From a virus: 39,490 bases of DNA. Shown piece after piece: positions 1 through 27,931 of the stretch. A model generated the notes under the pieces. It was given only the letters and a program-made list of their open reading frames with translations. It had not been told where the DNA came from and searched no databases. The stretch lies in UHGV virus genome UHGV-0154499. One strand, 5' to 3'. Both the position numbers and the translations under genes were made by a program. The first letter of the stretch is position 1, and each line of letters starts with the position of its first letter.

Positions 1-2887
1 GAACGAACTGGTTGGCGTTAAACCCGACGCGGGTGACTACCGGCTTACCCGCTTCGGCCAGCACGGCAATCGACATCCCGGCACCGTAAAAAATATCGTT
101 GATGCGCACTCCGACTTTCAGGGTATGAATGGCCGTAGCACTTGTAGCATCAACGGTGGCAGTGAGCTTATCCTCAAGCGAGGCGGTTACATCTTTAATC
201 TGCGCCTGCACCTGTGTGGACATTTCAGCCATCGCTTTATCAACATCAGCAATGGTCGTTTTAACCACCAGAATATCCGCACGTACCTCGCCGTACTGCG
301 CCCACTGGTGTTCCACGGTTGCATGGTTGGCCAGCGCGTTCTGCAATGCGGCTTCGAGGTTGGTATCAATGTCGCTTGTCAGGCGATCGCCGTCGGCAGA
401 CGTCAGGAAGTCATCAGCAATATCGCCCAGGTAGTCGTCAGCATTCGCATTAGATTCACCACGAACCCAGTCGGTCCAGCCTGATTCATTACCCGTTCTG
501 TCTACCAGCTGCGCGCGGTACCAGAATTCCTGCCCCGCCTTTAGTCCAAGTTGGGTGTATTCGGCTGACGGATAAGGCACATCCGACAGCAAAAGAGGAT
601 TAGAGAAATCACTGTTCGCGGTGTACTGAATTTCCGTTTTCAGTGTGTCCCCGGTGTTAGCCGGGAATCCCCAGTTCAGGCGAATCCCCCAGTTGATCGG
701 CGTTGTCGCAAAGCCGACAGGTTTTGGCGGATTTCCCACCTTACCCGTCAGCGTTTTTTCTTCGGAATAGCCCCAGCCAGAGGAAATTTCAGCGGCATTA
801 ATGGCACGCACACGCACGAGGTAGCGCCCTGCATAAATACCCGATACATCAAATGAGTTGGTGGAGCTGCGCGGCACGTTAACCCAGTTCCCGTCGTTGC
901 GGCGCCATTGCGCTTCATAGGAGATAGCGTTCTGCGCCTGGTCCCAGCTCACCCGCATGGTTTCGACGCTGATATTCTGCTGAACCACTGAAAACGAACT
1001 GATCACGATGTTGGCTGGCGGCGACTGGTTACCCGGCGGGATCACACTCACCGGCCGCTGGTCAATGATGGCTCCGGTATCAATACGGGCATATTTATCC
1101 GGGTCGTGCCATGCGCCGGTAATAGAGAAAGTGCCATCGCCATTATCGGAGACGCTGACAACACGATACTGCTGCGCGTAAAGCTCGTCCGACTCAACCA
1201 CCCAAACAGCTTCGGCCTGTGGCGTCTCACTGTATGCCGTAGTGACTGTGACTGATTGCCCGTTAACAGCCTGAATGGTCCTGCTCCGTGACGCGCCGGA
1301 GGGAAGATTGAGAATCAGACGATCACCAGCTACTGCATCCGCAACACGATCAAGCTTTATCACGCGACCGTTAACGGCGCTGATACGCCCGCCCAGAACT
1401 TTTCCGGACAGCAGTTCGTCTGACACGGCAATGATGTAGCCAGGCTGCGGAATGTTTCCGTCCAGGCCAACATCAAACGAAACAACGCGATCCTTATTGT
1501 TGGTGAGAATACCCCAGCGCCCCTTTCGGTTCGCTTCTGATTGCCGGTTGCAGCCGATGGCTGTCATTTCCAGCTGATTAAATCCGTAACGGGCCACCAG
1601 AGACTGCTCAAACACTGGCTCCATCGCATCCGCATAGGCGTTACCCGGATCAGACCAGGAAACCAGCGCCGTGGTATACCGCGTTTTTGTTGTACTGCTG
1701 GAATAGGTAAAGCGTCCGTCGATAACGTTAGCGCGGGTGTAAGCGTAATCCACATCTCTCGGCATATCGGCAAGCGCAACAATCTGATCACCGCCCCAGT
1801 ACGTCATACCCCGGAATATAGCCGCAAAGTCACGCAGCACGGTGTAAGCGTCATTCCTCTCCTGAACATAGACGTTACAGGTATAGCGTGGTTCGGTCCC
1901 GTTTCCACCCTTTCCATCCGGTACCGGCTGATCGCAATACTGCGATACCTGGTACAACGTCCATTTATCGATATTGGCGGCAGTCAGACGATTACCCAGA
2001 CCAAAGCGATCTGTAATCACAAGATCATAAAATATCCACGCCGGGTTATCGGTCCAGGCCCATTTAAACGCCCCTTGCCATGTACCGCTGTAAGTCCTCG
2101 TTTCAGGATCATAATTATCCGGCACACGGATCACGCGCATTTTTGGCTCGCAGGAAATCTGCGGGATAGAGCCATTGAACTGGCTTGAGTCGAACTCAAT
2201 GTAAAGCAGAGCGGTATTCGGATAACGTAATTTGGCGTCAATCACTTCCGTGAAGCTCTGCAGCGTCATTTTGTCACCGATCTTCGCGCTGTTTGCGTCA
2301 GCGGTAATCTTGCGTAACCGGATTGTCCAAGTGCTGCCAGCCTGTGGTAAATCAATACGGTGGCTGCGTTCGTAGCCTGAGGTGGTTTTCCCGGTTACGC
2401 TGGTATTCAGAACGGTTTGCCACGTACCACCATCGGTCTGCAGGTCTATCGCATAATTGACGGAATACCCAACCAGATCGCCGTTATCTTCCTGCTTAAA
2501 TAACGATGACCATTTCAGGCGCAGACGAACAGCTGAAAGCTGGGAATTGGTAAAGGTACGTGTCCATGCTGTTGCACTTGAAACCTCAGAGCCAACATTG
2601 ATCTCATTTTCAGTACCAGGGATACCCTGAATGTAATTCTGCGCCTGCGTCCCTGAACGGAACTCCCACACTACGCCACTGAAATTCTGCGAGCCATCCG
2701 CATTCTCAAGCGCGGTACCATCCAGATAAATATCCTTGCCAGTCAACTGTCCTGCGAACTCACCTTCTCCCAGCGCTACGAGTATTTTTGCCTTCGCTAC
2801 CGACTGCAGATCATCTGGCTGTTCGGTTGGGGTTCGGGAACTGGAACTGCCGCCCTTGCGGCCTTTAATCGTGGTTGCTAAAGCCAT
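1..2887 (-). CDS. J: Central tail fibre / host specificity protein J, partial (about 962 N-terminal codons; C-terminus lies beyond the window start)
   Basis: Manual translation of the minus strand from ATG near 2887 gives an uninterrupted frame to position 1 (MALATTIKGRKGGSSSSRTPTEQPDDLQS...), with fibronectin-like central and J-family motifs (YCDQPVPDG, TEPRYTCN). Missing from the ORF track because it has no stop in the window. Confidence 0.88.
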   Translation of the reverse strand, partial: MALATTIKGRKGGSSSSRTPTEQPDDLQSVAKAKILVALGEGEFAGQLTGKDIYLDGTALENADGSQNFSGVVWEFRSGTQAQNYIQGIPGTENEINVGSEVSSATAWTRTFTNSQLSAVRLRLKWSSLFKQEDNGDLVGYSVNYAIDLQTDGGTWQTVLNTSVTGKTTSGYERSHRIDLPQAGSTWTIRLRKITADANSAKIGDKMTLQSFTEVIDAKLRYPNTALLYIEFDSSQFNGSIPQISCEPKMRVIRVPDNYDPETRTYSGTWQGAFKWAWTDNPAWIFYDLVITDRFGLGNRLTAANIDKWTLYQVSQYCDQPVPDGKGGNGTEPRYTCNVYVQERNDAYTVLRDFAAIFRGMTYWGGDQIVALADMPRDVDYAYTRANVIDGRFTYSSSTTKTRYTTALVSWSDPGNAYADAMEPVFEQSLVARYGFNQLEMTAIGCNRQSEANRKGRWGILTNNKDRVVSFDVGLDGNIPQPGYIIAVSDELLSGKVLGGRISAVNGRVIKLDRVADAVAGDRLILNLPSGASRSRTIQAVNGQSVTVTTAYSETPQAEAVWVVESDELYAQQYRVVSVSDNGDGTFSITGAWHDPDKYARIDTGAIIDQRPVSVIPPGNQSPPANIVISSFSVVQQNISVETMRVSWDQAQNAISYEAQWRRNDGNWVNVPRSSTNSFDVSGIYAGRYLVRVRAINAAEISSGWGYSEEKTLTGKVGNPPKPVGFATTPINWGIRLNWGFPANTGDTLKTEIQYTANSDFSNPLLLSDVPYPSAEYTQLGLKAGQEFWYRAQLVDRTGNESGWTDWVRGESNANADDYLGDIADDFLTSADGDRLTSDIDTNLEAALQNALANHATVEHQWAQYGEVRADILVVKTTIADVDKAMAEMSTQVQAQIKDVTASLEDKLTATVDATSATAIHTLKVGVRINDIFYGAGMSIAVLAEAGKPVVTRVGFNANQFV

Positions 2888-2940
2888 ATCGCGCCCATAA
2901 AAAAAGCCACCCTGAGGTAGCCTGAGAAAAGAATTTTTTC

Positions 2941-3510
2941 TTACTGCTGATCTTCGACGTATATCCCAGCAGAAATAATCGCCCCACCAATTCGACGCTT
3001 ACCATACCCTAGGGGGACGGGATATCCCTGCGCCGCTGTATTAGTTACCCCGCCGAAAGCATACGAAGCGCGGTTATCTGCACTTTGTTTACTGGCAAGA
3101 CCTGATGGTTGTGGTGAGAGCATTTGAATAACTCCACCAGCAGCCAAAGAAATGCCTGCTGTAGCCACGTAATACTGCTGTGTTACAACCCCAACAACGA
3201 CCAAAGCAGCCCCAAGAATAGTTTGTAATAACCCTGCTTTTTTACTCCCAATAATTACAGGAACTATCCGTATAACCTCTCCTGTAACAGGATAACCAAG
3301 GTCACCCTCACCAATGTTTTTTTTCCCTTTAAATATGGCGTAAGTAAGCCCACGTCGTTTACTGGAGATCATATATTTCCGAAAACCATCTATGGTAGCC
3401 GAAAGAGCAACACCAGCTTCCTGCACATTGCTAATCAGTCGATGATGGGTCTTACCATAAATTTTCCCCAGATCTCCACCGAGTTCGATACGAGTCATTA
3501 CTTCAGTCAT
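2941..3510 (-). CDS. I: Tail assembly protein I
   Basis: Ubiquitin-like N-terminus (RIELGGDL), hydrophobic glycine-rich C-terminal half (GGVIQMLSPQ) as in lambda gpI. Start moved to the internal ATG at 3510, which has an AGAGG RBS; the track start at 3528 is TTG. Confidence 0.8.
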   Translation of the reverse strand: MTEVMTRIELGGDLGKIYGKTHHRLISNVQEAGVALSATIDGFRKYMISSKRRGLTYAIFKGKKNIGEGDLGYPVTGEVIRIVPVIIGSKKAGLLQTILGAALVVVGVVTQQYYVATAGISLAAGGVIQMLSPQPSGLASKQSADNRASYAFGGVTNTAAQGYPVPLGYGKRRIGGAIISAGIYVEDQQ

Positions 3511-3569
3511 TTGAACCTCTAAAAGCAAAAAACCCCGCCGTAGCGAGGTTTTGAAGAATATTAATTTGG

Positions 3570-3980
3570 TCAGAACGCCGTTGGGTGAATGCCAAAGTCG
3601 CCATTTGTTCCATAACCAATTCGGTACATGAGCGTGGCACTTTCAGTTACCTTGCCTGACTGTTCACTCATACCACCACCACATACACCTTTGGGCCATG
3701 CGCTAAAGATATGGTCACCTAATTTAGGGTAAACCGTTACCTTTTCAGCTGTATCTAAGTCCGCAACTTCTTTCCCATCAACATAGACACGAGTCAAACA
3801 TGCGCTACCCATAAATCCAGAATCCCTCTTGATGATCACCTTCCCTGTCCCATCATTTTTAACCAACATCGTATTGTCGATAATTTGTTTGACGGGAACA
3901 TCTTTTGCCTGCTCATTTGTTACCGGCTTAGTGGCGCAACCAACCATCAAAACTGCAAGTAGAATTATTCCTCTCTTCAT
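3570..3980 (-). CDS. Putative lipoprotein of unknown function (accessory gene; possible superinfection-exclusion protein)
   Basis: Internal start MKRGIILLAVLMVGC gives a signal peptide with a lipobox (LMVGC); the 19 residues upstream in the track ORF lack an RBS. No recognisable domain. Confidence 0.6.
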   Translation of the reverse strand: MKRGIILLAVLMVGCATKPVTNEQAKDVPVKQIIDNTMLVKNDGTGKVIIKRDSGFMGSACLTRVYVDGKEVADLDTAEKVTVYPKLGDHIFSAWPKGVCGGGMSEQSGKVTESATLMYRIGYGTNGDFGIHPTAF

Positions 3981-4020
3981 ATTCCTATCCCTTTGAGTCA
4001 ATTTGCTAAAATGGTAACAG

Positions 4021-4057
4021 GGAAAAGACAGCGACAAAACCCGCAGTTAAGCGGGTT
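4021..4057 (-). terminator. Rho-independent terminator downstream of the KilAC antirepressor gene
   Basis: Minus-strand hairpin AACCCGC-TTAAC-TGCGGGTT followed by TTTGTCGCTGTCTTTT. Confidence 0.5.
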
Positions 4058-4093
4058 GTGAGTAATACGATGAATACTTGAACTGTAGCCTGA

Positions 4094-4837
4094 TCAGGCC
4101 ACACTAGCCCCTTGGAGCAAATGTCGTAATGCCTTGATGCCTTCAGAGTTATAGCGAAACGCCTCAACCTGTTTATCGGAATGTTTCGACTTGTCGAGGA
4201 AGAATTTACCGTATTGCTCTGTTTTCAGATTGTGCTTGTTAGCCAAGCGACCAACCTTATTGGCAGAACAGCCGATCTCAGCAGCAACTTCTCCAGCGGT
4301 AGCGTAGTGTTCATCAATCAACGGCAAAGGCATGACCTCGTGCCCAAGCAGTGGATTAACAAGCGTTGCAACGATCACCTGGTTTGCTGATTCACCAAGT
4401 CTTGGGAACATTGACATCAACTCACGAGCTGAGGCGATATTTTTCTCCAGCGCCAGCGCTTTCAACTGCTCCGCCTTTGCACGTCGATATTCAGGAAGAC
4501 CCGAGCTATTTTGCGCTGAAATCTGGATAGCCTGCATATCTTCCAACTTATCAACTAGAGAACGTCGAACTGCTTTCGATTCACGAGCTGCTACGCGGAG
4601 GGCTTGCTTGATAGACATTGTAATTACTTCAATGTCTTGACCATTTTTACGACCTACACTTTTTGTGTAGGTCTCACCATCAAGCTCATCGACAACTTTC
4701 TCAATGAACTTGTTATTTCGGACAACCGGCTCACCGCACTGCTTTCGCGCGGCATTCACCATCTCCAGCAGGTACTGACTGTCAATGGTTTTCTCGGTGA
4801 CAACGCTACCCTTTGATGCTAAATTTAATGAAGTCAT
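4094..4837 (-). CDS. Phage antirepressor-like protein, KilA-C/ANT C-terminal domain
   Basis: C-terminal ATAGEVAAEIGCSANKVGRLANKHNL matches the KilAC (ANT) DNA-binding pattern; AAGGA RBS 9 nt upstream of the ATG. Confidence 0.65.
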   Translation of the reverse strand: MTSLNLASKGSVVTEKTIDSQYLLEMVNAARKQCGEPVVRNNKFIEKVVDELDGETYTKSVGRKNGQDIEVITMSIKQALRVAARESKAVRRSLVDKLEDMQAIQISAQNSSGLPEYRRAKAEQLKALALEKNIASARELMSMFPRLGESANQVIVATLVNPLLGHEVMPLPLIDEHYATAGEVAAEIGCSANKVGRLANKHNLKTEQYGKFFLDKSKHSDKQVEAFRYNSEGIKALRHLLQGASVA

Positions 4838-4864
4838 TAAGTGGTCCTTATGACGGTTTCATGG

Positions 4865-4899
4865 ATAGCCGATAGCTCGAACTATCGGCTATTCTTTTT
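4865..4899 (+). terminator. Perfect 11-bp inverted repeat with a plus-strand T-run (terminator-like, or a regulator binding site)
   Basis: ATAGCCGATAG-ctcgaa-CTATCGGCTAT followed by TCTTTTT, between the BRO-N and antirepressor genes. Confidence 0.4.
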
Positions 4900-4913
4900 G
4901 CATTTAAGCAAAT

Positions 4914-5495
4914 TCAATAAATCCTCGGTCGTTCTCCCTGTTGTAGTTGTTGATCAGCATATTCCTTAATCATATATATGAATGCCGCCCCATCATTAAA
5001 ACGATCATGAAGGCGACCAGCCAAAGGTGACTCTATTGCCCTCAAAGCTGGTTCTATCTGGTTAAACCATGCTTCACACATAACCTCGAAATAATCGAAC
5101 ATTGCGTTTGCATTGTGGGCGTGGATTTCACGATTGCTGAGCATCTTTGTTGCTGGAATGTTTATAGAAACCTCACGATCCAGAATGTCTAAAACCCAGC
5201 GTCGGAATTCTTTAGCAACTGGAGTTCTGGCAAACATAGCGACCATGTGTGCGCCACGTAGAGAAAAAACCCGAGTTTCCTGATTCCCACCAGGGGTGGT
5301 CAACCTGACCACCCTTGTCATTTTTTCTGTAAATTCATCACAATGCCTAGCATGTATGCGCTGTACAGCCTTATCGTCTGCATACTGAAGCGCAAAACCG
5401 ATCTGATTTGCGCTCAACCAAATTCCATCGATATCGGAGATGGTCTGAAAAGATACGCCTTGGAAGTTAAGCTCTGTTTTGGTTACACTATTCAT
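4914..5495 (-). CDS. BRO-N domain protein (phage antirepressor/regulator family)
   Basis: BRO-N-like N-terminus (ELNFQGVSFQTISDIDGIWLSANQIGFALQY...RVFSLRGAHMVAMFARTPVAKEFRRWVLDIL). Start set at the internal ATG (MNSVTK) with an AAGGAAA RBS; the track start at 5591 is GTG and overlaps the upstream small gene. Confidence 0.7.
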   Translation of the reverse strand: MNSVTKTELNFQGVSFQTISDIDGIWLSANQIGFALQYADDKAVQRIHARHCDEFTEKMTRVVRLTTPGGNQETRVFSLRGAHMVAMFARTPVAKEFRRWVLDILDREVSINIPATKMLSNREIHAHNANAMFDYFEVMCEAWFNQIEPALRAIESPLAGRLHDRFNDGAAFIYMIKEYADQQLQQGERPRIY

Positions 5496-5568
5496 GTCGA
5501 TATTTCCTTCGCGGGATTTGTTCGATAAGAAGCCCCGGCTATCGCAATTAGTTGGGGCTTCACTGTTT

Positions 5569-5736
5569 TTAAGCCTGAGCACTTTTTTCACCTGTCAAAC
5601 CATATGCCTTTCTCAGTTGGTAAATCAGTTCGGTATTGAACTGACGACATTCTTCCCCGCCATTCCTTTCAATCGCCTCGCGAACATCCTCCGGAATGCG
5701 AATTTTGCGCTGGTACATATCTTTCGCTTTTTGCAT
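5569..5736 (-). CDS. Small Arc-like ribbon-helix-helix protein (55 aa), not in the ORF track
   Basis: Manual translation MQKAKDMYQRKIRIPEDVREAIERNGGEECRQFNTELIYQLRKAYGLTGEKSAQA; strand-helix-helix pattern like Arc/Mnt; AAGGAG RBS 6 nt upstream; first gene of the minus-strand operon ahead of BRO-N. Confidence 0.55.
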   Translation of the reverse strand: MQKAKDMYQRKIRIPEDVREAIERNGGEECRQFNTELIYQLRKAYGLTGEKSAQA

Positions 5737-5854
5737 TTCATCTCCTTAAGCCCCACCGTGGGGCACTAAAAGTGTCACACCGTGCGTCATTGAAGTCAAC
5801 CCCACCGTGGGGCATAATTTACAAATTGTGAATTTTTAGAGGTCAAGCCAGCAA
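5737..5854. promoter_or_regulatory. Divergent promoter/operator region with two copies of the 13-bp palindrome CCCCAC-C-GTGGGG
   Basis: Palindromes at about 5751-5765 and 5800-5814. Plus-strand promoter TTGAAG-17 bp-CATAAT overlaps copy 2; minus-strand promoter TTGACT-17 bp-GACACT lies just upstream of copy 1. Confidence 0.55.
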
Positions 5855-6289
5855 ATGAGCAGAGAAGATCCACAGCTTAGAATCAGACTTCCTATTGAAT
5901 TGAAAGAAAAAATTGAGGAAGCAGCTAAGTCTAATAATCGCTCCATGAATGCAGAAATTGTTCAGCGTCTTGATGCCAGTTTCTTAAGCGAAATGCCGGT
6001 AGATGAATTAGTTTCAGCTGAAGAAGCCCTACTTATCGTAAGTCGCGCAAAGGATGAACTGTCAGGGATAATTTTCAAACGGACATTTTCCGTCATTAAC
6101 GAGAAGATCCGTATTGGGCACACTACATTCCATATCAGCCTTAGCGACTTAGACCTTGAAGGCTTGAGCGATGATGATTTTGAAGCTGTGTTTAAGTCTA
6201 CATTCTCCCGCCTAAAAAGCCTGGGTTACAACATTTGGGAGTCAAGCTGGGATGTGAACGGATTCATGGTTGAGATTCCTAAGAAATAG
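5855..6289 (+). CDS. Arc/Mnt-like ribbon-helix-helix repressor with a C-terminal extension (144 aa)
   Basis: N-terminus RIRLPIELKEKIEEAAKSNNRSMNAEIVQRLDASF is a canonical Arc/MetJ-family RHH motif; transcribed divergently from the small RHH/BRO operon. Confidence 0.7.
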   Translation: MSREDPQLRIRLPIELKEKIEEAAKSNNRSMNAEIVQRLDASFLSEMPVDELVSAEEALLIVSRAKDELSGIIFKRTFSVINEKIRIGHTTFHISLSDLDLEGLSDDDFEAVFKSTFSRLKSLGYNIWESSWDVNGFMVEIPKK

Positions 6290-6296
6290 ATTCACA

Positions 6297-6321
6297 GTAA
6301 AAGCCCACCTTATGTGGGCTT
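6297..6321. terminator. Bidirectional terminator between convergent gene K and the Arc-like gene
   Basis: AAAAGCCCAC-cttat-GTGGGCTT with U-runs on both strands; overlaps the K stop codon. Confidence 0.5.
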
Positions 6322-7030
6322 ATAAAAGATCCTTATACCGTAGAACCTTTGTCGTTCTTTCCTGCCAGTATCCCCCATACGGTACACGCTGACTCAAATG
6401 ACCATAAAGATGGTGGAGTAACATGTTACCTTCCAGCAGGATCCCTGCATGGTTCCACTTATTAGCCTGGACCTGCATGATAACCATATCACCTGGCTGC
6501 GGTACGCCACTGAATTCTCGGAATCCGCATTCATACCAGCAATCGTGGTAGAAATTTTCGGGGTAACTATCCTCCCACCAGGGATAATCCACGCGGTAAT
6601 CCGTCAGCTCAATGCTATGCGTTTGCCGGAAATAACTCATCACCAGCCCCCAGCAATCGAAATGGCCGAGCACGAACGGACGTTCCAGCAGCGGTAACTC
6701 GCCGCGCGGCTGAATGGTGCGTAAATCCCCTTCCGGCCAGCTGACGATATGCCAGGGAAGTAACGTAGCGTCACACTGTGCCTTATCCAGTTCGCTCGCC
6801 TGCGTCGTGGCATCCGGGTGGCTGTGGACAATGGCAATCACTGTTCCCCAGTCTTCGGCAGCGGCATAATCTTCCGGCGACAGGTGGAAATGCTCTGTTG
6901 GATCGGTTGCCAGATTACGGCAGGGAATGTACCGCTGCACCCTGCTTTTTTGCACCACTACGCCGCAGCTCTCCCGCGGATATTCAGCGGCAGCATGCGC
7001 CATAATGGCATTGATAATTCTCTGACGCAT
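6320..7030 (-). CDS. K: Tail assembly protein K (JAB/MPN plus NlpC/P60 domains)
   Basis: JAMM motif HSHPD and an NlpC/P60-like C-terminal half; sits between L and I as in lambda. Confidence 0.85.
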   Translation of the reverse strand: MRQRIINAIMAHAAAEYPRESCGVVVQKSRVQRYIPCRNLATDPTEHFHLSPEDYAAAEDWGTVIAIVHSHPDATTQASELDKAQCDATLLPWHIVSWPEGDLRTIQPRGELPLLERPFVLGHFDCWGLVMSYFRQTHSIELTDYRVDYPWWEDSYPENFYHDCWYECGFREFSGVPQPGDMVIMQVQANKWNHAGILLEGNMLLHHLYGHLSQRVPYGGYWQERTTKVLRYKDLL

Positions 7031-7031
7031 A

Positions 7032-7787
7032 TCAGCTCCTGATCAGGGATGTACCAGGGAAACCACCAAACGGTAACTCGTTCCCCACGCCATGTCGCAA
7101 CTTGCACGCAGTGAGCGTACCGGGGCATTCATCGAGCGAAGGATCGTTAACCGGGTTGTTGTGCTTGTCGAAATAACGCGTTCCGGCATAGTCACATCCA
7201 TCACCTGAGCGGTATTTGTTACGGATACACCAGGTACAAAGCGAATGTAGCTGGCGCGTCGGGATCATCAGTCCCTGCAGGTCCATTGGACTGGACAACG
7301 TAAACGCCACCACCTCGTTGGTTTCAGTGCTCTTGGCGTCAATGTAAAACACCTTCAGCTTTTCCTGCTGCGGATCCGCTGACGGGTTGCCCTCCGGATA
7401 GTTTTTCGCATCCAGATACTGCGCCAGCGTGTCATGAATCGTGACCTTTGCCTGCAGCAGGTCATCATAAGCAAGACACAGCGCCGTAATGGAACTATCC
7501 AGGTTAGCGACCGACAGCGTCGGCTGCGCGCTGGTCCCGTCGGTCGCCGTCTCAATACCCTCGATCTGGCAGGGCCAGGCTTTATATTCCTGCCCCTGCC
7601 ACCAGATTGATTTCGCCGGTAGCTTATTTTCATCTCCACCAGCAGCGGCAATTTCATCGGGAGTGTGGGCAATGTTGTGGGCGTGGAAGCGGAGAACGTC
7701 GGAAACACCAAATGCGGTGCCATCGACATCAAAAAGCCGGACAACATTGCCCGGCTCAAGTTTCTGGTAATCACTGTTTAAGCTCAT
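7032..7787 (-). CDS. L: Minor tail protein L
   Basis: Position and size as lambda gpL; C-terminal Cys cluster (CTWCIRNKYRSGDGCDYAG) typical of gpL. Confidence 0.85.
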   Translation of the reverse strand: MSLNSDYQKLEPGNVVRLFDVDGTAFGVSDVLRFHAHNIAHTPDEIAAAGGDENKLPAKSIWWQGQEYKAWPCQIEGIETATDGTSAQPTLSVANLDSSITALCLAYDDLLQAKVTIHDTLAQYLDAKNYPEGNPSADPQQEKLKVFYIDAKSTETNEVVAFTLSSPMDLQGLMIPTRQLHSLCTWCIRNKYRSGDGCDYAGTRYFDKHNNPVNDPSLDECPGTLTACKLRHGVGNELPFGGFPGTSLIRS

Positions 7788-8131
7788 GGTGCAAACGCCT
7801 GTTCAAAGGTGGCTGATACGGTTTCCACCGTTTTACTTTTGGTGACGCGCTGCAGGCTGTCTGCCTCAACGCGCCAAAGCGCAAGATCACCGCCTGGCGG
7901 GGTAAACGAAAATGATTTCGTCTTATGGCGCCGCAGAAAAGCATAGATATCCTTGACGGTTCCCGGTTCGCCGGTAAATGAAAACTCATAGCTGAGCGTT
8001 TCATCATTCATCCCGGCACCTGACACCTGCTTATAGCCATCACCAAACTGTGCCGTGCGGACGGTATCCTTACTTTTCAGGGTCGGCTGGCTGGATGCTT
8101 TAATCCGCCACGCAAAATGCTCGATCGCCAT
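7784..8131 (-). CDS. M: Minor tail protein M
   Basis: FGDGY motif and size of lambda gpM; 4-nt overlaps with neighbouring genes. Confidence 0.82.
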   Translation of the reverse strand: MAIEHFAWRIKASSQPTLKSKDTVRTAQFGDGYKQVSGAGMNDETLSYEFSFTGEPGTVKDIYAFLRRHKTKSFSFTPPGGDLALWRVEADSLQRVTKSKTVETVSATFEQAFAP

Positions 8132-8134
8132 TGC

Positions 8135-10651
8135 TTACCTCTGTTTTGTTGCATTCCAGATAATGCCTCCGGGCCGGACCTCTCTGGTGATACCTTCCCT
8201 GATGGAACTGTTGATCACCTGCTGATAGGCTTTCCCCAGCGCATCGCCGCTTCCTTTCTGTTGACCGGAATCCCCCTGGCCTGTTGTCACCGAAACCGGC
8301 GCATACACGCTGACGCCAAAAGGAGAAGCAACGCCACCGCCACTCACGCCGACCAGACCACCAGTCGCATAACCGCGCATCATGCGATAAAGGTTGCCGA
8401 CACCTATTCGGTTGGTGGCCTCCTGCGTAAAGACAAACTCGCCACGGTGCACCACACCTGCTGGCTCATACTTGCCGCCGGATCCGGTATAACCACCGCC
8501 AGCAAAACCCAGCGCTGACGTGGCAGAACTGACCAGGCCAGCCATGGCCTGCTTCATCAGGATCTGCGTCAGCATCGACAACGTTGAACGGGTGAAATCT
8601 GCCCAGTTTGCTTTCCCTGTCGTCAGCATATCGGCCATATTCTGGCTGATACCATCGAATGTGGCTGAAGCAGCGGACTTCATCGAACCATAGGCATCAG
8701 CTGCTGAATCGGCATAGTCAGCCCACGCTGATTTCGCCCCGGCCTGCCAGTTGCCGCGGAGCTCGTCCTGTGCGGCATAATATTTCTTCAGTGCATCCAG
8801 TTCGTTCTGATAACCCTGATCGGTGTCCGTACCGCCGGCATTCATCCAGCCCTGCCGCAGCTGTGCTTCTTCGTTTTGCCGCTGTGCGCCGCGACTGCTC
8901 ATGCTTCCCCCGGCCACAAGCGCCCGGGTTTTCTCCCCAATCTGGGTAACGTACTTCTGCGAGCTGTCCTGCAGGCGGTTTAACCGTTCCTGGGCAACAA
9001 TCTGATCGCCCAGCCGGGCATTCACTTCGGCCCGCGCCAGTACCTCGTCTTTGTTCGCCAGCACCGATTTTTCATCGGCGGTCAGCGCGCGCTTTTTGGC
9101 GGCTTCTTCCAGCACCGAAAAGCGGGATTGTTGTTTCCACAATTCCTGCCGCTGCTGGCTGATGGTATCCGTGATGCTCTTATGCTCCTGCAGGGTGCGT
9201 AACTGAGCCTCCAGCTCCAGCGTCTGCGCGCTGGCAGTATCGACACTTTTTACACCTGCAGGTGTTTTTACCGCTGAAGGGGCTTTGGGTTTCTTCAGCG
9301 AGTCGTCGTATTCTTTTTTCGCAGCTTCCAGATTGATGTTGTAATCAGCCTGGAGGATCCGTCCGTCTTTAAGCGCCTTGTTCAGTTCATTCTGACGGGC
9401 CGTGTACTTCTCCAGCGCAGTCTGCGTCTTTGCATAATTCGACTGCGCCTGCGCGGCATACTTCTGGCGGTCAGATTCAATCACCGCCTCGCGGGCGGCG
9501 TTATCCTCAGTGGCCTTTGCCACACTGGCCTGCTGCTGCGCCATTTCCAGTGCAAGGCGGGCAGACTCCCGATCGTTCCAGTAGCTGGCACGCGCATCAT
9601 CATTGACATAACCATCACCTTTACGCAGATTCCAGATTTCATCCGCCCGCTTAAAGGCCGCTTCCGCTTTGGCTACCATCTCCTGCGTGGTGTCAGGCCG
9701 CCCGATATCGAGCGCCGCATCCCACATCGATTTAAAGGCACGCTTCAGGCTGTCGGCAGCAGACTCAATCGACCCCATATTGTCGCGCAGGCTCTTTGTC
9801 TGCTCACGAAAACCGTTCGTCGCCGCATCATTAGCTGCCTGCAGTGCCTCGGCTTCATCCCCGGCACGCTGCAGCTGCGCCACATAAGCAATCTGTTCCG
9901 CTGTGACGTTGTGGAACTGCTGCGCCATGGCAATCAGACCAGAGGTCGGATCGTTCGTCAGTTTGCCGAATGCCGCCGCCACCTTATCGACCGGCACACC
10001 CGACGCATCGGTGAATTTCGCTACCGCCTGACTCATCTCATCGAACCGGGCACCGGCACGCACTCCGGCGTTGACAAGCTCTGTCAGCGCGCTGCTGGTC
10101 TGGTTAAACGTGAGTCCAGCCTGTTCGCCGGATTTCGCCAGCACCAGCATGCGGTTTGAGGTCAGTCCGGCAGTATTACCGGACAGAACCAGCGTTTTAT
10201 TAAAATCAGACAGCGTGGACGATCCCTGATACCAGGCGTAAACCACCGCGCCGGTGGCGGCTGCCAGCGCGCCAACCCCCACCATCACCGGCGATATGGT
10301 GCCCAGCAGCGCGCGGAAGGTCGGAATGATACCGCCGAAGGAGTCTTTCACCTGACCGCCCTGCTGCAGCAGGATAAGCCACGGACTCTGCCCGCCGGCC
10401 AGCTGTGTTGCAACATCCGTGAATTGCGCAGGCAGCATTCTCATCGCATTACTGTACTGCCCAATTGATAAACCCGCTTTCTTGGCGGCCAGCTCCTGAC
10501 GGGATAACGACTGCTGCACCTTCAGCGCAGAGTCGTTCGCCGCGTCACCCGTCTGCTTAAACTGCCGTTTTACGTACTCCATCTGCTCGTTGAACTTTGA
10601 CGAATTAACGTCAAGGTTAACGACCAGGTCACCCACTGCCGTCTGGGCCAT
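8135..10651 (-). CDS. H: Tail tape measure protein H
   Basis: 838-841 aa; coiled-coil-rich centre and glycine-rich C-terminus; N-terminus MAQTAVGDLVV aligns with lambda gpH MAEPVGDLVV, so the start is probably the ATG at 10651 rather than 10660. Confidence 0.9.
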   Translation of the reverse strand: MAQTAVGDLVVNLDVNSSKFNEQMEYVKRQFKQTGDAANDSALKVQQSLSRQELAAKKAGLSIGQYSNAMRMLPAQFTDVATQLAGGQSPWLILLQQGGQVKDSFGGIIPTFRALLGTISPVMVGVGALAAATGAVVYAWYQGSSTLSDFNKTLVLSGNTAGLTSNRMLVLAKSGEQAGLTFNQTSSALTELVNAGVRAGARFDEMSQAVAKFTDASGVPVDKVAAAFGKLTNDPTSGLIAMAQQFHNVTAEQIAYVAQLQRAGDEAEALQAANDAATNGFREQTKSLRDNMGSIESAADSLKRAFKSMWDAALDIGRPDTTQEMVAKAEAAFKRADEIWNLRKGDGYVNDDARASYWNDRESARLALEMAQQQASVAKATEDNAAREAVIESDRQKYAAQAQSNYAKTQTALEKYTARQNELNKALKDGRILQADYNINLEAAKKEYDDSLKKPKAPSAVKTPAGVKSVDTASAQTLELEAQLRTLQEHKSITDTISQQRQELWKQQSRFSVLEEAAKKRALTADEKSVLANKDEVLARAEVNARLGDQIVAQERLNRLQDSSQKYVTQIGEKTRALVAGGSMSSRGAQRQNEEAQLRQGWMNAGGTDTDQGYQNELDALKKYYAAQDELRGNWQAGAKSAWADYADSAADAYGSMKSAASATFDGISQNMADMLTTGKANWADFTRSTLSMLTQILMKQAMAGLVSSATSALGFAGGGYTGSGGKYEPAGVVHRGEFVFTQEATNRIGVGNLYRMMRGYATGGLVGVSGGGVASPFGVSVYAPVSVTTGQGDSGQQKGSGDALGKAYQQVINSSIREGITREVRPGGIIWNATKQR

Positions 10652-10994
10652 AGCGAACACCTCCTGAAATGCCCTCGGCCTTTGCCATCAGCACAGCGTC
10701 ACCGGGTTCATCGTCGGCAATATCCTCCGCAGAAGGTGAAAGCAGGCTGAAGCTGGCAGGGGTTGATGTGGTTTTGGGGTCAAGCGCGGTAATGACGATA
10801 TGCATCAGCGAGGAAAAATGCGCATCCAGTTGCACATCATTAAAAAAATTGTCCTGGTAGAACGTTCGCCAGTCGGCGTATTCCGTTGACGACATACCAG
10901 CAAGCATGGCGCGCCAGTCCGGGCGGCGAAATTCACGCGCCAGTTTCAGGACGAATGTCAGCTCACTGGCGAGGACTTTTCCAGACTGATCGGC
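10629..10994 (-). CDS. T: Tail assembly chaperone T frame, expressed as a G-T fusion by programmed -1 frameshift
   Basis: The -1 frame is open from about 10994 and overlaps the 3' end of G; translation (MLAGMSSTEYADW...PASFSLLSPSAEDIADDEPGD) matches lambda gpT; an A-rich slippery stretch CTGGAAAAG sits in the overlap. Confidence 0.75.
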   Translation of the reverse strand, partial: ADQSGKVLASELTFVLKLAREFRRPDWRAMLAGMSSTEYADWRTFYQDNFFNDVQLDAHFSSLMHIVITALDPKTTSTPASFSLLSPSAEDIADDEPGDAVLMAKAEGISGGVRYGPDGSG

Positions 10995-21278: not shown

Positions 21279-22151
21279 TTAAAAAGCAATATCAATTAGT
21301 TCTCCTTTGCTCAATATTTTTCTAAAAATTTCAGCTCCATAAAGTGTAATAACACCTTCCAGAGTACAAAGAGGTTCCTTAGCACGAGCCATACATAAAC
21401 CACTTTTAGCACCGCCATTTAGTTTAGTATGAAGTGTTTTTGTAAGAATAGCAGCGAGTTCTAAGTCACTTATCTCTGCTACCGTATTTTTATTCAATTG
21501 TGACCTTTCGATTAGTTGAATAAAAATATCGATTCGACCAGGAGTTAACCCAAGATCTTGTGATAGCTCGTGTATTAAACCCCGTAAATCAACTTCAGCC
21601 TTAGGAGTAAAACGCCAATGTTTTATACCAAACTCTTTACCGTTACATGGTGCACCGATAACAACAGCCCTAAGTAAACTTAAAAATCCTTTACAAAACA
21701 CCCAGTTACCATCCGAGTATTCAATACCAAAATCACCACCCACACTATTTTTACTGTAAATATAATGATAATCCTCTGGTATACCAGACTCATGAACATC
21801 ATTACATCTTAATAAATGGTAAATTATATCTTCTGGTGCTGTCTCAGCTACTATCAACTGTGGGATTTCATCCCAATAATATGCTTCCTCAGGAAGGTTA
21901 TACCCCATAATTTGTTGTAACCTTACACGGAGAAATCTTTTATATTTTTCCCCATCTGTCATTCGTTTTTTTTGGGCTTGTCCCTTTGTTTTTTTTGGTT
22001 TAGTTATGGGTTCTTGTTCAAAAGGGAAAACTTTGAGAGCTGATCCAGATATAGCTGTCACCAAAAGCAGAAGTGCAGCTTCGTAACGACTATGAGAAAT
22101 CAAAAAATCAACATCATCCAAGCGTTTTTTTATGTTACTTACCTTTTGCAT
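21279..22151 (-). CDS. Hypothetical 290-aa protein, AT-rich accessory gene (moron) between cos and the lysis cassette
   Basis: Complete ORF with ATG, flanked by AT-rich noncoding DNA on both sides; GC visibly far below the phage backbone; no recognisable motifs. Confidence 0.6.
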   Translation of the reverse strand: MQKVSNIKKRLDDVDFLISHSRYEAALLLLVTAISGSALKVFPFEQEPITKPKKTKGQAQKKRMTDGEKYKRFLRVRLQQIMGYNLPEEAYYWDEIPQLIVAETAPEDIIYHLLRCNDVHESGIPEDYHYIYSKNSVGGDFGIEYSDGNWVFCKGFLSLLRAVVIGAPCNGKEFGIKHWRFTPKAEVDLRGLIHELSQDLGLTPGRIDIFIQLIERSQLNKNTVAEISDLELAAILTKTLHTKLNGGAKSGLCMARAKEPLCTLEGVITLYGAEIFRKILSKGELIDIAF

Positions 22152-24379: not shown

Positions 24380-24420
24380 TTTTGATAAATTAAAGACTCA
24401 CAGCACATTAAAGTTCAAAT
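24380..24420 (-). promoter_or_regulatory. Candidate late promoter PR' (minus strand)
   Basis: TTGAAC-18 bp-TTTAAT on the minus strand, upstream of the tR'-like terminator; placement relative to Q is unusual. Confidence 0.3.
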
Positions 24421-24448
24421 GTTAACTATTAGATTCCAAAGGAATATT

Positions 24449-25390
24449 ATGACGACTGCAGTTGCGGTAAAAAAACCCAAAAAACTACGAATTGGATTCT
24501 ATACAAGTAGTTCTGGAACCATTCGGAGCCACTCTGTTGCCAAAGCTGCGATCGATAACCTTTACAGTACTTGCGTAAATGTAACTAATAATCATTTCGA
24601 TACTATATATAAAAATAAAAAATTGAAAATCGCATTTATTAATAAAGATGCCAATGCTAAATATTATTTTGGCTATATGTCTTGCTCAAGGGAAGAATAT
24701 CTACTGCCTTATATTGGAGATGAGAACTGGAAAGAACACAACATCCCATTAGATGATAAAAAATATATTGTCGAGCGCACTTATTTTTTGTATTACTACG
24801 AAAGTGACATTCTGATCCTTACGCAAAATCATCTTGGCCCCAAGGAATCGGATCTGGCTTACCTTTTATACAGCCAGAGTGGTCAACCAGGTAACAACTT
24901 TTCTTTCCAAGCTATTTGGAAGAAAGAAAGTATAAAAGAGCTTCTCGAAACAGGAAGTACACTTAGAAGCTGCGATCTCATTCTTGCTGCCCCAAGAAAT
25001 TTCGATGTGACTAATTATCAGTTAGATAGCTCATTTTCAAAAGATCTTCTGAATATGATGGTTGGCCTTGGCGGCACACATTTAAAACTCAATCTTAGGG
25101 GTAGAGCATCTGGCAGAGTTAAAGTTAAAGGCTATCTTTCGGATCTGATAAAAGATGGTATTAAAGAATTATTAGAAAAAATGCCAAATATTGTCAAAAA
25201 AGCAGCAGTAACACAGCCCAAAAATACTGTAGAGCAAAGCCTTCTTGAACAAGTTCTCATTTCGGAGAAAAACATTCATACCGTAAATGGTTATGGCACA
25301 GATAGCGATGTGCTCCAAGCGATGATTTCTGCTAAAATTGACAACAATGGTTACCTTATCCAGTACGACATAAGCAATAAGAAGGTATAG
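24449..25390 (+). CDS. Hypothetical soluble protein (313 aa), first gene of a two-gene accessory cassette; RexA-like by architecture
   Basis: AT-rich ORF; start at internal ATG with an AAAGGAA RBS; lysine-rich, no TM segments. Possible weak similarity to RexA from memory (GFY near the N-terminus, LGPKESDL...LL), unverified. Confidence 0.6.
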   Translation: MTTAVAVKKPKKLRIGFYTSSSGTIRSHSVAKAAIDNLYSTCVNVTNNHFDTIYKNKKLKIAFINKDANAKYYFGYMSCSREEYLLPYIGDENWKEHNIPLDDKKYIVERTYFLYYYESDILILTQNHLGPKESDLAYLLYSQSGQPGNNFSFQAIWKKESIKELLETGSTLRSCDLILAAPRNFDVTNYQLDSSFSKDLLNMMVGLGGTHLKLNLRGRASGRVKVKGYLSDLIKDGIKELLEKMPNIVKKAAVTQPKNTVEQSLLEQVLISEKNIHTVNGYGTDSDVLQAMISAKIDNNGYLIQYDISNKKV

Positions 25391-25393
25391 TTT

Positions 25394-25837
25394 ATGTTAT
25401 TGAGATATATAGCAAATATTTTAGGGAGCATTTTACTAACATATTTCTTACTGAAGTATGTCCCACTAATGCAACATAATGATATTCTTACGTCCGCAGG
25501 GGTTATCTCCACTGTGTCTGGGATTTTGTTTGGGTTTGTGCTTGCCACCATTTCAATTTTTAGCGCAGCTAGCGCTAATTCAAATGGGGTTTTAAAGGCC
25601 TTAAAAAACAATAACATACTCCAAGGAATTGTAACTAATTTATTAGCCGCTGGAGCGACATTAATTACAGCATGCTTGATTTCACTCGTTGCCATGTTTG
25701 TCAGTGACAATTTAGTCTACAATGACCAAAAAATAGAGTTTATATTCATAATTCAATCATTATCACTATTGATAGTAGCCGTCATAATGTTTGGGTTTAC
25801 TTGGCGTAAAATTAATTGGTTTTTACCACACATATAA
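25394..25837 (+). CDS. Small integral membrane protein with four predicted TM helices (147 aa); RexB-like by size and topology
   Basis: Four hydrophobic segments (about residues 5-24, 34-58, 75-103, 115-137); starts 4 nt after the upstream gene's stop; GAAGGT RBS. Confidence 0.6.
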   Translation: MLLRYIANILGSILLTYFLLKYVPLMQHNDILTSAGVISTVSGILFGFVLATISIFSAASANSNGVLKALKNNNILQGIVTNLLAAGATLITACLISLVAMFVSDNLVYNDQKIEFIFIIQSLSLLIVAVIMFGFTWRKINWFLPHI

Positions 25838-25859: not shown

Positions 25860-26222
25860 TCAATCCAAATCTAATCTAGCACTAATCATGCACAAACAGC
25901 CGTCAACAAAACCCTCTGCCATTTGCATCTCTATCCTTATTATTTTTTCGTCTTTTTTTTGAGCTTTAGCAATTTTACGCTTCGATACTCCATACAGATA
26001 ATGTGCGACAATAAGTGAATGCTCATATGGTTTCCTTTTCTTGAGGCGAGCTAAGCAACCTTCAATAATCAGAGCATCTTCATCAGTGCAAGAAAGGCGA
26101 GTCTTGCTCGTTTGGGGAAGTAGCCCTTTAAAGCCAGCTGCAATTGGTGAGTAATCCACGCCAGAACTATCGCTCGCGGCCCATCCCCCCCAACGTTCTA
26201 ATACCATCTGAATATCACGCAT
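25860..26222 (-). CDS. Q: Late-gene antitermination protein Q (phage 82/21-type family)
   Basis: 120 aa; MRDIQMVLERWGGWAA... N-terminus and Cys-rich region typical of 82-type Q antiterminators. Confidence 0.8.
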   Translation of the reverse strand: MRDIQMVLERWGGWAASDSSGVDYSPIAAGFKGLLPQTSKTRLSCTDEDALIIEGCLARLKKRKPYEHSLIVAHYLYGVSKRKIAKAQKKDEKIIRIEMQMAEGFVDGCLCMISARLDLD

Positions 26223-26239
26223 TACTTTTCTCCATACAC

Positions 26240-27235
26240 TTAAGCTTTCGCAATTACGCCGATCGCCAGCGCCCGATCCATAAAACGCAGTAGCAGCTCA
26301 AGCTGCGTACCATGCTTCTGCTCGAATGCCGGTACATCGGCGTGTAACTCGTCGTGGCACTCTCTGCACAGAGGGATCACGAAGAGGTCATGGGCTTTTG
26401 TTGCTGTACCACCCATACCGTGCCCTACGATATGGTGCGGATCATCTGCTGGCCGTCGGCAACACTCACAGGGTTGTGTTTTTACCCAGCGGGTGTAACT
26501 CTCATTTATCCAGCGGCGTCGCTTTGGCCTGAGCATGAAAGATTCTGGAGACTCCGGATCAACAGAGAGCGTGAGGATCTTCTTCGCCTTCTCCTGCACG
26601 AGGCTGGCTGCAGAAGCGGAAGGCACAATGTCGCTTTCCCTCATGACCGAGCGGATCTTCTCATCCGGAAGGCGTAGCCCCTTGTGCGCAACGCTTTCCG
26701 GAATTACATCAGCCAGGTCGTTTCTGACCATCCACCAGCACAGTTCCGGAAGCGTCAGGATATGCGACTCGGGAAAACCAGAATCACGCCGAATGACTTC
26801 CAGAATCCAGGATACCAGGTTTCCTGCCGCTATACCTGCAAGCTGTTCGGTATGCTGCCCCGACAAAGTGTGATCGCAATGCCAGCACAGGCGAATACTT
26901 CCTGGTGGGTGCCGCATTGTTGTGAAGTTCTTGTCGTGCCACGATGAATGTGGCCACTGGCATTCAAACCGATTACTCAACCATTGCTCAAGGGAAGGAA
27001 GCCCACCAGCACGCTGAATAACCCGATCATTCTCGAAGACCTGCCGCATTACCGGATCATCAGCCAGCGGCTGAATGGCGGCGGGAACAGCTCCTGTACT
27101 GAATGACGCCATTTCTTCTGGTTCAGGTTCGAGAAGGACGCGACCGCGCATAAAGAGGTGCATCAGTTCCGCACCGGGACGAAACAACACAATCCCCATG
27201 CGATGGGCCACTTCAGGAGTTAACAAAGCCCTCAC
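26240..27235 (-). CDS. DUF968-family lambdoid prophage protein (YdfU-like) with C-terminal HNH-like zinc motif
   Basis: C-terminal CECCRRP...HHIVGHGMGG...CRECHDELH pattern; nin-region position. Confidence 0.65.
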   Translation of the reverse strand: MRALLTPEVAHRMGIVLFRPGAELMHLFMRGRVLLEPEPEEMASFSTGAVPAAIQPLADDPVMRQVFENDRVIQRAGGLPSLEQWLSNRFECQWPHSSWHDKNFTTMRHPPGSIRLCWHCDHTLSGQHTEQLAGIAAGNLVSWILEVIRRDSGFPESHILTLPELCWWMVRNDLADVIPESVAHKGLRLPDEKIRSVMRESDIVPSASAASLVQEKAKKILTLSVDPESPESFMLRPKRRRWINESYTRWVKTQPCECCRRPADDPHHIVGHGMGGTATKAHDLFVIPLCRECHDELHADVPAFEQKHGTQLELLLRFMDRALAIGVIAKA

Positions 27236-27918
27236 GCCGCCTGCCCTCTTGCAATATGTTCAGCCCACAAGCCACCAATCCAGCGTACTCCCTTGGCAGT
27301 GAAACGCGTCTGGCTAAATGCGTGATTAGATGTGCTCGATGTTCCCGTCTTAACTTCAAATCTCCCCGCGGAAATGTGCTGCGCCATGGGGGTAAGTGTG
27401 CCGCCGAGGCGATACAGGATATTGCGTTCAATAAGGAACAGACGAAACTCAGTTTCTTTTGCGTTAAGCAATTTGGCTACCTGCCGGAATGACATGGAGC
27501 CTTTTGCAGAGCAATAACGATCAACAAACTCCACTTTTGGCGCCGCGGCTGCCAGCTGGATCGTCAGTTGCTCTTTCTGCTCGGCTAAATCAGCAGCCAG
27601 GCGAAGCGCTTCCGGTAATGAGCGGGGAACACTGACACTCTGCCCTTCTTCCAGTTCCTGCCAGCGATCGACAACCGCGGCGGTAAATTCAGGTGACAGT
27701 CTGGCAACAATCACCAGAGAGTCGCGTTTGTTAAAACGATACTCCTGGTACACATTACCGTTATGCTCAAAATCGAACTGCGCCAATGGCGCGGTTAAAA
27801 TTCCCGCAGCAACAAGACGCTCAGCCGAGCGTTTCACGTCACTGTGTTTACTCTGAACCAGATCCGCAATATCACGGCTGGACATTGTTACTACACCATT
27901 CACGATTAACTGGCTCAT
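27232..27918 (-). CDS. Rha-family phage regulatory protein
   Basis: N-terminus MSQLIVNGVVTMSSRDIADLVQSKHSDVKRSAERLV matches the Rha pattern; start set at the ATG with a GGAG RBS. Confidence 0.7.
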   Translation of the reverse strand: MSQLIVNGVVTMSSRDIADLVQSKHSDVKRSAERLVAAGILTAPLAQFDFEHNGNVYQEYRFNKRDSLVIVARLSPEFTAAVVDRWQELEEGQSVSVPRSLPEALRLAADLAEQKEQLTIQLAAAAPKVEFVDRYCSAKGSMSFRQVAKLLNAKETEFRLFLIERNILYRLGGTLTPMAQHISAGRFEVKTGTSSTSNHAFSQTRFTAKGVRWIGGLWAEHIARGQAA

Positions 27919-27931
27919 ACTTTTCTCCATA

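Follow-up and report, generated by a model that had tools for sequence, protein, structure and literature searches.

Between the tail genes K and I of UHGV-0154499, a 39,490-nucleotide (nt) sequence referred to here as the window, lies an island of about 2.8 kb (positions 3570-6320) that an initial annotation had described as resembling the immI antirepressor region of phage P22 (X01916; mnt, Pmnt/Pant, arc, sar, ant). In the window, a lambdoid prophage integrated in Citrobacter freundii, the late genes are on the minus strand. The island is made of two independent morons, an immI-type ant moron at about 4040-6319 and a lipoprotein moron at 3529-4035, and the regulatory cassette was added between the lipoprotein moron and K. 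We place a probability of roughly 0.7 on the reading in which these 2.8 kb are two stacked morons and the ant moron is a P22 immI-type circuit with a payload acting on cI-type repressors. The likeness to P22 held up both as homology and as shared design, through an Mnt homolog, a common operator core, a match to the sar RNA, the presence of the cassette in the immI slot of other phages and an Escherichia coli relative of the cassette that carries Ant.

As in P22 immI, the gene of an Mnt homolog is divergent from an operon in which an arc-type gene precedes the payload. The mnt-like gene (5855-6289, plus strand) encodes a protein of 144 amino acids (aa) that matches Pfam Arc (E 6.8e-15) and, over its full length, PHROG 1388; its best match among solved structures is P22 Mnt (1mnt, E 6e-7), and BLASTP against P22 Mnt gives 31% identity (E 6e-13). 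The N-termini run in parallel, MARDDPHFNFRMP in P22 Mnt and MSREDPQLRIRLP in the window protein; the residues of the β-strand predicted to contact the bases are H, N and R in the former and Q, R and R in the latter, a difference that would fit a related but distinct operator specificity. A 100% identical protein is named 'Arc family DNA-binding protein [Citrobacter freundii]' at NCBI. Behind the N-terminal ribbon-helix-helix (RHH) the protein has a C-terminal domain of ~90 aa (AlphaFold2 model, predicted local distance difference test score (pLDDT) 79); residues 55-144 are conserved across Enterobacterales and are modelled as a long helix and a small alpha/beta unit (pLDDT ~85-90). When the model was compared with the PDB by Foldseek, only the RHH part was matched (Arc) and the C-domain gave no significant fold match; our guess, by analogy with the Mnt tail, is that this domain may take part in oligomerisation.

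The first gene of the payload operon encodes a small RHH protein of 55 aa, Arc55 (5569-5736, minus strand), which matches Pfam Arc (E 4.7e-4) and the Arc-like repressors of PHROG 228 (7.6e-6). It resembles the N-terminus of the Mnt-like protein (E 7e-6), its strand YQRKIRIP being similar to the Mnt-like strand, and an Arc-like open reading frame (ORF) precedes bro, the next gene of the operon, in nearly all related loci.

The control region between the mnt-like and arc-like genes (5737-5854) contains three palindromes and two back-to-back promoters. A repeat search located O1 (GCCCCACCGTGGGGC) at 5750-5764, a degenerate O2 (GTCACACCGTGCGTC) at 5774-5788 and O3 (ACCCCACCGTGGGGC) at 5799-5813; they are palindromes of 13-15 bp of the form GCCCCAC-N-GTGGGGC, their centres are 24 and 25 bp apart, and the exact palindrome 12-mer is unique in the window. 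The promoter scan gave a candidate Pmnt on the plus strand (TTGAAG 5790-5795, 17-nt spacer, CATAAT 5813-5818), and a candidate Pant was read from the sequence of the minus strand (TTGACT, reverse complement of 5794-5799, 17-nt spacer, GACACT, reverse complement of 5771-5776, with an upstream TG). The two predicted -35 elements overlap by two bases; O3 lies inside the Pmnt spacer, O2 inside the Pant spacer and O1 over the predicted Pant start. A total of 11 distinct relatives and an E. coli locus (L095) have kept this arrangement of palindromes and promoters. P22 has, immediately downstream of the annotated Pant -10, a perfect 17-bp palindrome, AGGTCCACGGTGGACCT, which is the Mnt operator. Its core, CCACGGTGG, is also that of the window palindromes, and its outer positions differ from theirs; in both systems a palindrome with this core covers the start of the payload promoter. 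By analogy, Arc would bind at O2, in the Pant spacer, and Mnt at O1, over the start. No LexA box (CTGT-N8-ACAG, at most one mismatch) was found inside the island, and window-wide counts equal those expected by chance; control of the island therefore appears to be of the Mnt/Arc type rather than of the SOS type, which we rejected.

Both spacers of the operon carry plus-strand terminators, antisense to the operon (5529-5561 and 4863-4894, terminator scan); these hairpins would not terminate minus-strand transcription. The first belongs to a sar homolog, a predicted antisense RNA of ~70 nt over the bro ribosome-binding site (5497-5570, plus strand), for which a permissive search with the Rfam sar model (RF00262) returned positions 5497-5564 on that strand with 33.1 bits (E 3.9e-4, model positions 1-68 of 68). 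In the P22 control, the same model scored 97.8 bits at the same relative position, with a match that spans the interval between the arc stop codon and the base preceding the ant ATG; parallel matches were obtained in two related loci, L087 (35.0 bits) and L069 (31.9 bits). The homolog forms two hairpins, the second of which (5529-5561) is followed by a U-run (fold -32.3 kcal/mol, z -5.1), and the P22 and window RNAs have in common both this fold and the sequence GAAGCCC...GUUGGGGCUUCA(A)CU. In P22 as in the window, codons 2-4 of the downstream gene contain the candidate Psar -10 (TACACT in the window), the embedding sequences being MNSI TGCTATACT in ant and MNSV GGTTACACT in bro. The same two hairpins and U-run, with covarying stems, were present in 44 of 46 distinct arc-bro spacers from related loci, a count taken from per-sequence folds, since the stems of some classes were misaligned by MAFFT.

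A candidate for a second antisense RNA, sar2, was located by promoter and terminator scans in the following spacer (4797-4903, plus strand). Its promoter (GTGACA, 17-nt spacer, TAAATT, with a TG; 4797-4825) is within the first codons of the second payload gene, which encodes a 247-aa protein (Ant247), and the predicted RNA of ~70 nt (~4830-4900) is complementary, in its 5' hairpin, to the start codon and Shine-Dalgarno sequence of that gene; the terminator hairpin 4863-4894 and a U-run follow (fold -25.9 kcal/mol, z -4.4). The 41 distinct variants that related loci supplied all share this two-hairpin fold. The terminator stem is fully paired in 22 of 22 aligned sequences, three of its eight pairs change on both sides, and its covariation score of 0.356, against 0.156 for shuffles, was reached by none of 500 of them. 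No Rfam family matched sar2, and in the open-access literature we found no description of a second sar-like RNA or of immI cassettes in siphovirus tail operons. The terminator scan also listed a third terminator-like hairpin inside the bro coding sequence (5291-5317, plus strand; CAGGGGTGGTCAACCTGACCACCCTTG, then TCATTTTTTC).

Indirectly, the strongest support for an antirepressor function comes from E. coli CFSAN018748 (NZ_CP028192), where the same control region (~76% nt identity) drives a 306-aa ortholog of P22 Ant (56% identity). That prophage, together with gp40-42 of phage TL-2011b, shares with the window the palindromes, the promoters, an arc55-like gene, the sar-type hairpin and the location in a lambda-like tail operon; it differs in having a single true P22 Ant ortholog as payload and in its insertion site, which in CFSAN018748 is between tail genes L and K.

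The cassette has travelled widely. Relatives of Ant247 are found on at least 179 IMG/VR contigs and in 311 phage records, and a tblastn map of the fetched loci shows the Arc-like, Bro and 247-aa genes together in several contexts: between K and I (10 loci, one of which, L012, matches the window exactly), between the tape-measure gene and M (six loci), between genes on the tail-tube side and the tape-measure gene (Erwinia phage Midgardsormr38, L021 and L030) and upstream of more distant tail modules. They also occupy the slot between gene16 and the tailspike gene in P22-like podoviruses (Lederbergvirus JEP4, L005, L069 and L090), which is the classical immI position, with the mnt gene beside the tailspike gene. 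The small RHH and divergent Mnt-like genes fall into several sequence classes with their own promoter-flanking repeats while the Bro and 247-aa genes stay conserved, a pattern that looks like an exchange of specificity modules. Other classes of the cassette (L004, L016-L021, L038, L053 and L064) retain a payload promoter TTGACA-17-TAAATT with different flanking repeats, for example GGGGCCAACTTGAC...GTCAAGTTGGCCCC, paired with different β-strand sequences in the Mnt/Arc proteins; such pairings suggest, from sequence comparison, that several operator specificities exist among the cassettes. When Rfam was searched at gathering thresholds, the window gave nothing, and the one RNA among eight related loci was an int-alpA RNA in L017, a cassette-carrying Klebsiella-type relative (RF02996, 19577-19645, plus strand, 43 bits, above the gathering score); this RNA is unrelated to the cassette.

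The payload consists of two genes. The bro gene (4914-5495, minus strand; 193 aa from the ATG at 5495) is in the position of ant, directly after arc and sar, and its product contains a Bro-N domain (PF02498, E 1.3e-9, 38.9 bits against a cutoff of 25.6; residues 49-136 of the long ORF). It matches PHROG 245/5060 'anti-repressor Ant' (4e-38), and its C-terminus gives a sub-threshold P22_AR_C signal (20.6 bits against a cutoff of 22.4, E 4.8e-4). The second gene (4094-4837, minus strand) encodes Ant247, which has no Pfam match even at E<=10, no NCBIfam match and no match among PDB sequences; no Pfam domain was present in any of its 120 closest homologs. PHROG 1726 names it 'anti-repressor' (1e-83), and NCBI 'hypothetical protein'.

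Profile searches thus upheld four of the five gene labels given by the initial annotation, namely the Arc/Mnt-like RHH protein on the plus strand, the divergent small Arc-like RHH protein, the Bro-N protein and the lipoprotein. The fifth, a KilAC domain in Ant247, was rejected at the sequence level: no ANT (PF03374) match was obtained, unlike for the window's own KilAC protein, to which Ant247 has no similarity (E 0.06). What stands of this label is the general kind of protein, on the grounds of fold and architecture. The AlphaFold model of Ant247 is confident (pLDDT 91.3), and Foldseek against viral models gave full-length matches to annotated antirepressor, KilA and KilAC proteins (E 2e-9 to 1e-7), the whole model aligning to KilAC-annotated models at E 9.8e-8, a resemblance at the level of the fold. 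Among 905 representative relatives, the two modules of Ant247 are shuffled independently. The N module also precedes KilAC (P0126 and P0173), and the C module also stands behind ORF6N, Rha, Bro-N, KilA-N, AntA or P22_AR_N, and thus fills the slot that is elsewhere taken by KilAC. The genuine KilAC protein of the window is encoded at 27232-27957 (minus strand), in the nin region, with RusA and a DUF968 protein as its neighbours, and combines Rha (5e-7) with KilAC/ANT (4.7e-25); with it, the prophage has a total of three antirepressor-like proteins.

Taking these observations into consideration, and by analogy with P22, the cassette most likely functions as a Mnt/Arc/sar-controlled antirepressor circuit against cI-type repressors, and we infer the antirepressor activity of Bro and Ant247 from their context. 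In a lysogen, the Mnt-like repressor would be made from Pmnt and bind the GCCCCAC-N-GTGGGGC palindromes, shutting Pant at O1 (perhaps also at O2) and limiting its own promoter at O3. Upon infection, or after loss of Mnt, Pant would fire and give a pulse of arc, bro and ant247 transcription, after which the Arc-like protein would close the promoters again. The sar homolog and sar2 would pair with the bro and ant247 ribosome-binding sites and block translation, both of transcripts from Pant and of Q-antiterminated late read-through toward I and J. The payload would bind and inactivate cI-type repressors, either the helix-turn-helix (HTH)-S24 repressor of the prophage itself (31321-32055) or those of co-resident prophages.

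Several observations weigh against this reading. In the control region, the Pant -10 (GACACT) is poor, and Pmnt and Pant are back-to-back and not interleaved as in P22. Arc55 reaches the Pfam cutoff exactly (20.4 bits) and has no detectable similarity to P22 Arc, and its Arc-type assignment is therefore one of fold and family membership only. The sar match lies below the Rfam gathering score of 43, and the candidate Psar matches the consensus at only 8 of 12 positions. As for the payload, BLASTP found no significant similarity to P22 Ant for Bro (E 0.16) or for Ant247 (E 9.0), and the two modules of Ant247, a Rha-like N module and a MerR-type winged HTH C module, are both DNA-binding-like folds, which, as modelled, would also fit a transcription factor. 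The Ant of phi24B, the only tested Ant of a Shiga toxin (Stx) phage, is a homolog of the P22 Ant C-terminus; it promoted induction and had no effect on superinfection immunity. We rejected it as a functional precedent, since it is a P22-Ant-C homolog, not one of the Ant247 family, and corresponds to a different Stx-phage gene. Finally, the repressor of the prophage has an S24 autocleavage domain, and an antirepressor is not needed for its SOS induction; the circuit would then be a second layer, as in P22, and may be mainly relevant for interactions with other prophages.

The payload observations are also what sustains the best of the alternatives, which we consider unlikely: that the regulatory shell is immI-like, while Bro and Ant247 are DNA-binding regulators or effectors of another target, such as host or phage promoters, satellite or prophage cross-talk via DNA binding, or counter-defence, the 'antirepressor' label being an annotation carried over from architecture. 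Bro-N is a domain of the DNA-binding type, neither protein is like P22 Ant, the Ant247 family is named 'hypothetical protein' and lacks Pfam domains among its closest homologs, and no functional study of this family was found in the open-access literature. However, a real P22 Ant ortholog is under this same control region in E. coli, and in P22-like phages the cassette takes the place of ant at immI. A tight, threefold regulation of each gene, by Mnt, by Arc and by antisense RNA, is in keeping with a product that endangers lysogeny, and Bro retains a weak P22AR-C signal.

A toxin-antitoxin or abortive-infection defence moron, with the RHH proteins as antitoxins or autoregulators and the larger proteins as effectors, is very improbable. 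RHH antitoxins are common, the 144-aa protein weakly matches a FitA-like RHH (E 1.9e-4, below cutoff), and defence genes are frequent in tail-operon morons, a YafO moron being present in the tail regions of HK639 and TL-2011b. However, none of the five proteins gave a significant PADLOC model (the only hit was GajB, E 0.004, 13.7 bits), no toxin domain was found in the Pfam, PHROG and NCBIfam searches of the island proteins, the RHH genes are divergent, with own promoters and shared operators, and do not form an antitoxin-toxin operon, and Mnt, its type of palindrome and sar all have specific homologs here.

The make-up of the island bears on its origin. The interval from K to I holds five ORFs, with a GC content of 0.41-0.49 against 0.53-0.59 in the flanks (~0.1 lower). 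Among the 80 closest relatives of K (identity of 88% or more), the distance from K to I was measured locus by locus: K and I are adjacent, with a gap of 12-15 bp, in 20 of them; about 50 have a single insert of 0.37-0.8 kb; and only five have a cassette of 2.7-3.0 kb like that of the window. The ORF layout, the drop in GC and the adjacency in relatives together sustain the description of five extra genes between K and I. The island is thus missing from most close relatives, has promoters and terminators of its own and is atypical in composition, all of which characterise morons. That the five genes are instead conserved tail or tail-fibre accessory genes for tip assembly, as their place inside the tail operon and mostly common orientation might suggest, is scarcely credible and was ruled out, given that K and I are adjacent in a quarter of the relatives, most of the others having a different small gene, that GC is below that of the flanks, that no structural-protein families were found, and that the cassette, with its own promoters and terminators, also occurs at other junctions and in podoviruses.

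At its K-proximal edge, the island is bounded by a hairpin read from the sequence, AAGCCCAC-CTTAT-GTGGGCTT (6301-6321), which overlaps the K stop codon and is followed on the minus strand by TTTACTG; the terminator scan gave it no score. It probably separates K from the moron, as a terminator or insulator, and ends the mnt-like transcript, and similar hairpins stand after K in the moron-carrying relatives L142, L139 and L108. Between the 247-aa and lipoprotein genes, a weak terminator-like hairpin (AACCCGC-TTAACT-GCGGGTT, then TTTGTCG; 4036-4057, minus strand), also read from the sequence and absent from the terminator-scan list, is tentatively the likely end of the ant moron. A megablast of 2900-7100 against phages and E. 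coli genomes gave no close DNA match: the alignments were limited to K and L against phiKO2 (77%) and to short pieces of the cassette elsewhere.

The remaining gene of the island (3570-3980, minus strand; 136 aa) encodes a lipoprotein (PHROG 890, 1e-50) with the leader MKRGIILLAVLMVGC, whose lipobox, as read from the translation, is MKRGIILLAVLMVG-C with Cys15. An intrinsic terminator (3529-3552, minus strand, terminator scan) closes this moron, and directly after it come the ribosome-binding site of gene I, AGAGG, and its ATG at 3510; relatives that have other morons there show the same layout, and the annotation of phiKO2 has it too. Homologs of the lipoprotein are found alone at K/I, without the ant cassette, in L100-L102 (~30% identity) and L142 (81%), and in coliphage HK639 a homolog of 66% identity is a moron between the tape-measure gene and M. 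Its own terminator and the homologs that stand alone make the lipoprotein gene an independent moron and not, as had been proposed, a member of the circuit. It matched no PADLOC model and, as an independent conversion gene, may act in receptor masking.

The small inserts between K and I in the relatives are mostly lipoprotein-like or secreted-protein genes, each of which is closed by a terminator with the ribosome-binding site of gene I right behind it. The K/I junction of loci L098-L177 is a hot spot for morons, many of them with lipoprotein-type leaders, for example MNKILLVLSIALLPGC in L100 and MKKNILLISLLGLFGC in L104. In related coliphages, genes of YafO-family toxins are a further kind of moron; they lie in the tail or late region, close to a lipoprotein or an ant cassette (L178, HK639, 4472-4909; L096, TL-2011b, 2794-3339); they show the diverse cargo that has been collected at tail-operon junctions.

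In its general design, the ant moron has known counterparts. Villafane et al. 2008 (epsilon34 genome, PMC2629481) described the 'ant moron' as a variable insert in the late operon of P22-like phages, with ten types in sixteen genomes; like the cassette studied here, it is a variable and independently expressed late-operon insert, often with mnt, arc and ant, and P22 immI itself is likewise a moron inside the late operon. It was described, however, at a single podovirus site, whereas the cassettes reported here lie in siphovirus tail operons, at the K/I, L/K and tape-measure/M junctions and on the upstream side of the tape-measure gene. With respect to P22, the window differs in having three palindromes instead of one, in the arrangement of its promoters, in the extra C-domain of the Mnt-like protein, in an Arc-like protein not detectably similar to P22 Arc, in a two-gene payload (Bro-N protein and Ant247) in place of Ant and in a second antisense RNA candidate; its host genome is a lambda-like siphovirus, with the insertion at K/I and not between gene16 and the tailspike gene.

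The LexA-controlled small antirepressors described by Lemire et al. 2011 (PMC3121763), GfoA/GfhA of Gifsy, Tum of coliphage 186 and AntC of N15, share with the cassette a gene location away from cI/cro and a possible action on the repressors of co-resident prophages; however, they are unrelated proteins under SOS control through LexA boxes, where the window has Mnt/Arc and antisense RNA. Gp19 of phiKO2, an annotated moron, and the other K/I morons of N15/phiKO2-like and lambdoid phages have the same insertion point, the same bracketing by terminators and the same I ribosome-binding site after it, but phiKO2 and most relatives have a single small gene there, often for a lipoprotein, in place of the regulatory cassette of the window.

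For the 247-aa and 144-aa proteins of the island, C. freundii proteins of 100% identity are present on 25 and 27 contigs, respectively. On the K side of the island lie K itself (6320-7030, JAB and NlpC/P60 domains, ending at 6320), L (7032-7787), M (7784-8131) and the tape-measure gene (8135-10660); on the other side lies I (2941-3510, starting with the ATG at 3510), and J is truncated by the left end of the window. The cI-like repressor (31321-32055, HTH and peptidase-S24) adjoins a CII-like gene, beyond which are replication, Dam, RusA and Q genes, and the integrase is at 38127-39440.

The slot between Q and the lysis genes is the position of the stx cargo in Stx phages. Here it holds, between Q (25860-26222) and the lysis genes and opposed to the flow of transcription, a pair of genes (24419-25837, plus strand) for a 323-aa DUF6731 protein and a 147-aa protein without Pfam match, which may be a defence or conversion moron. 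Two further sizeable minus-strand ORFs encode proteins without Pfam match, one of 234 aa beside the cI-like repressor (32416-33120) and one of 290 aa between the lysis and terminase genes (21279-22151).

The immI-type ant moron is a design that is already known, common in databases and loosely annotated; the features that set this variant apart are the siphovirus K/I site, the three operators, the back-to-back promoters, the two-gene non-Ant payload, the second antisense candidate and the stacking with a lipoprotein moron. The finding extends the classical immI paradigm and overturns nothing in current understanding. The second-immunity circuit of P22 reaches beyond podoviruses, as a self-contained cassette in lambda-like tail operons of Citrobacter, Klebsiella, Enterobacter, Salmonella and E. 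coli, and genes labelled 'hypothetical protein', or loosely 'antirepressor', acquire a testable regulatory map of operators, promoters and two antisense RNAs.

A broader proposal, which we put forward as a possibility while leaning against it, is that the cassette is a distinct and widely travelling version of immI, with sar-type silencing of each payload gene, a new Ant247 antirepressor family and interchangeable Mnt/Arc/operator specificities. If this were true, sar2 would be an undescribed RNA family with at least 41 sequence variants that silences the second payload gene; Ant247 would represent an antirepressor family in which a Rha-like N module is joined to a MerR-type winged-HTH C module substituting for KilAC; and the interchangeable Mnt/Arc/operator sets would amount to different 'immunity' specificities distributed across siphovirus and podovirus junctions. 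If the payload acts on non-cognate cI-type repressors, such cassettes would commonly lead enterobacterial prophages to induce one another, and by inactivating heterologous repressors they would influence prophage stability in polylysogenic enterobacteria.

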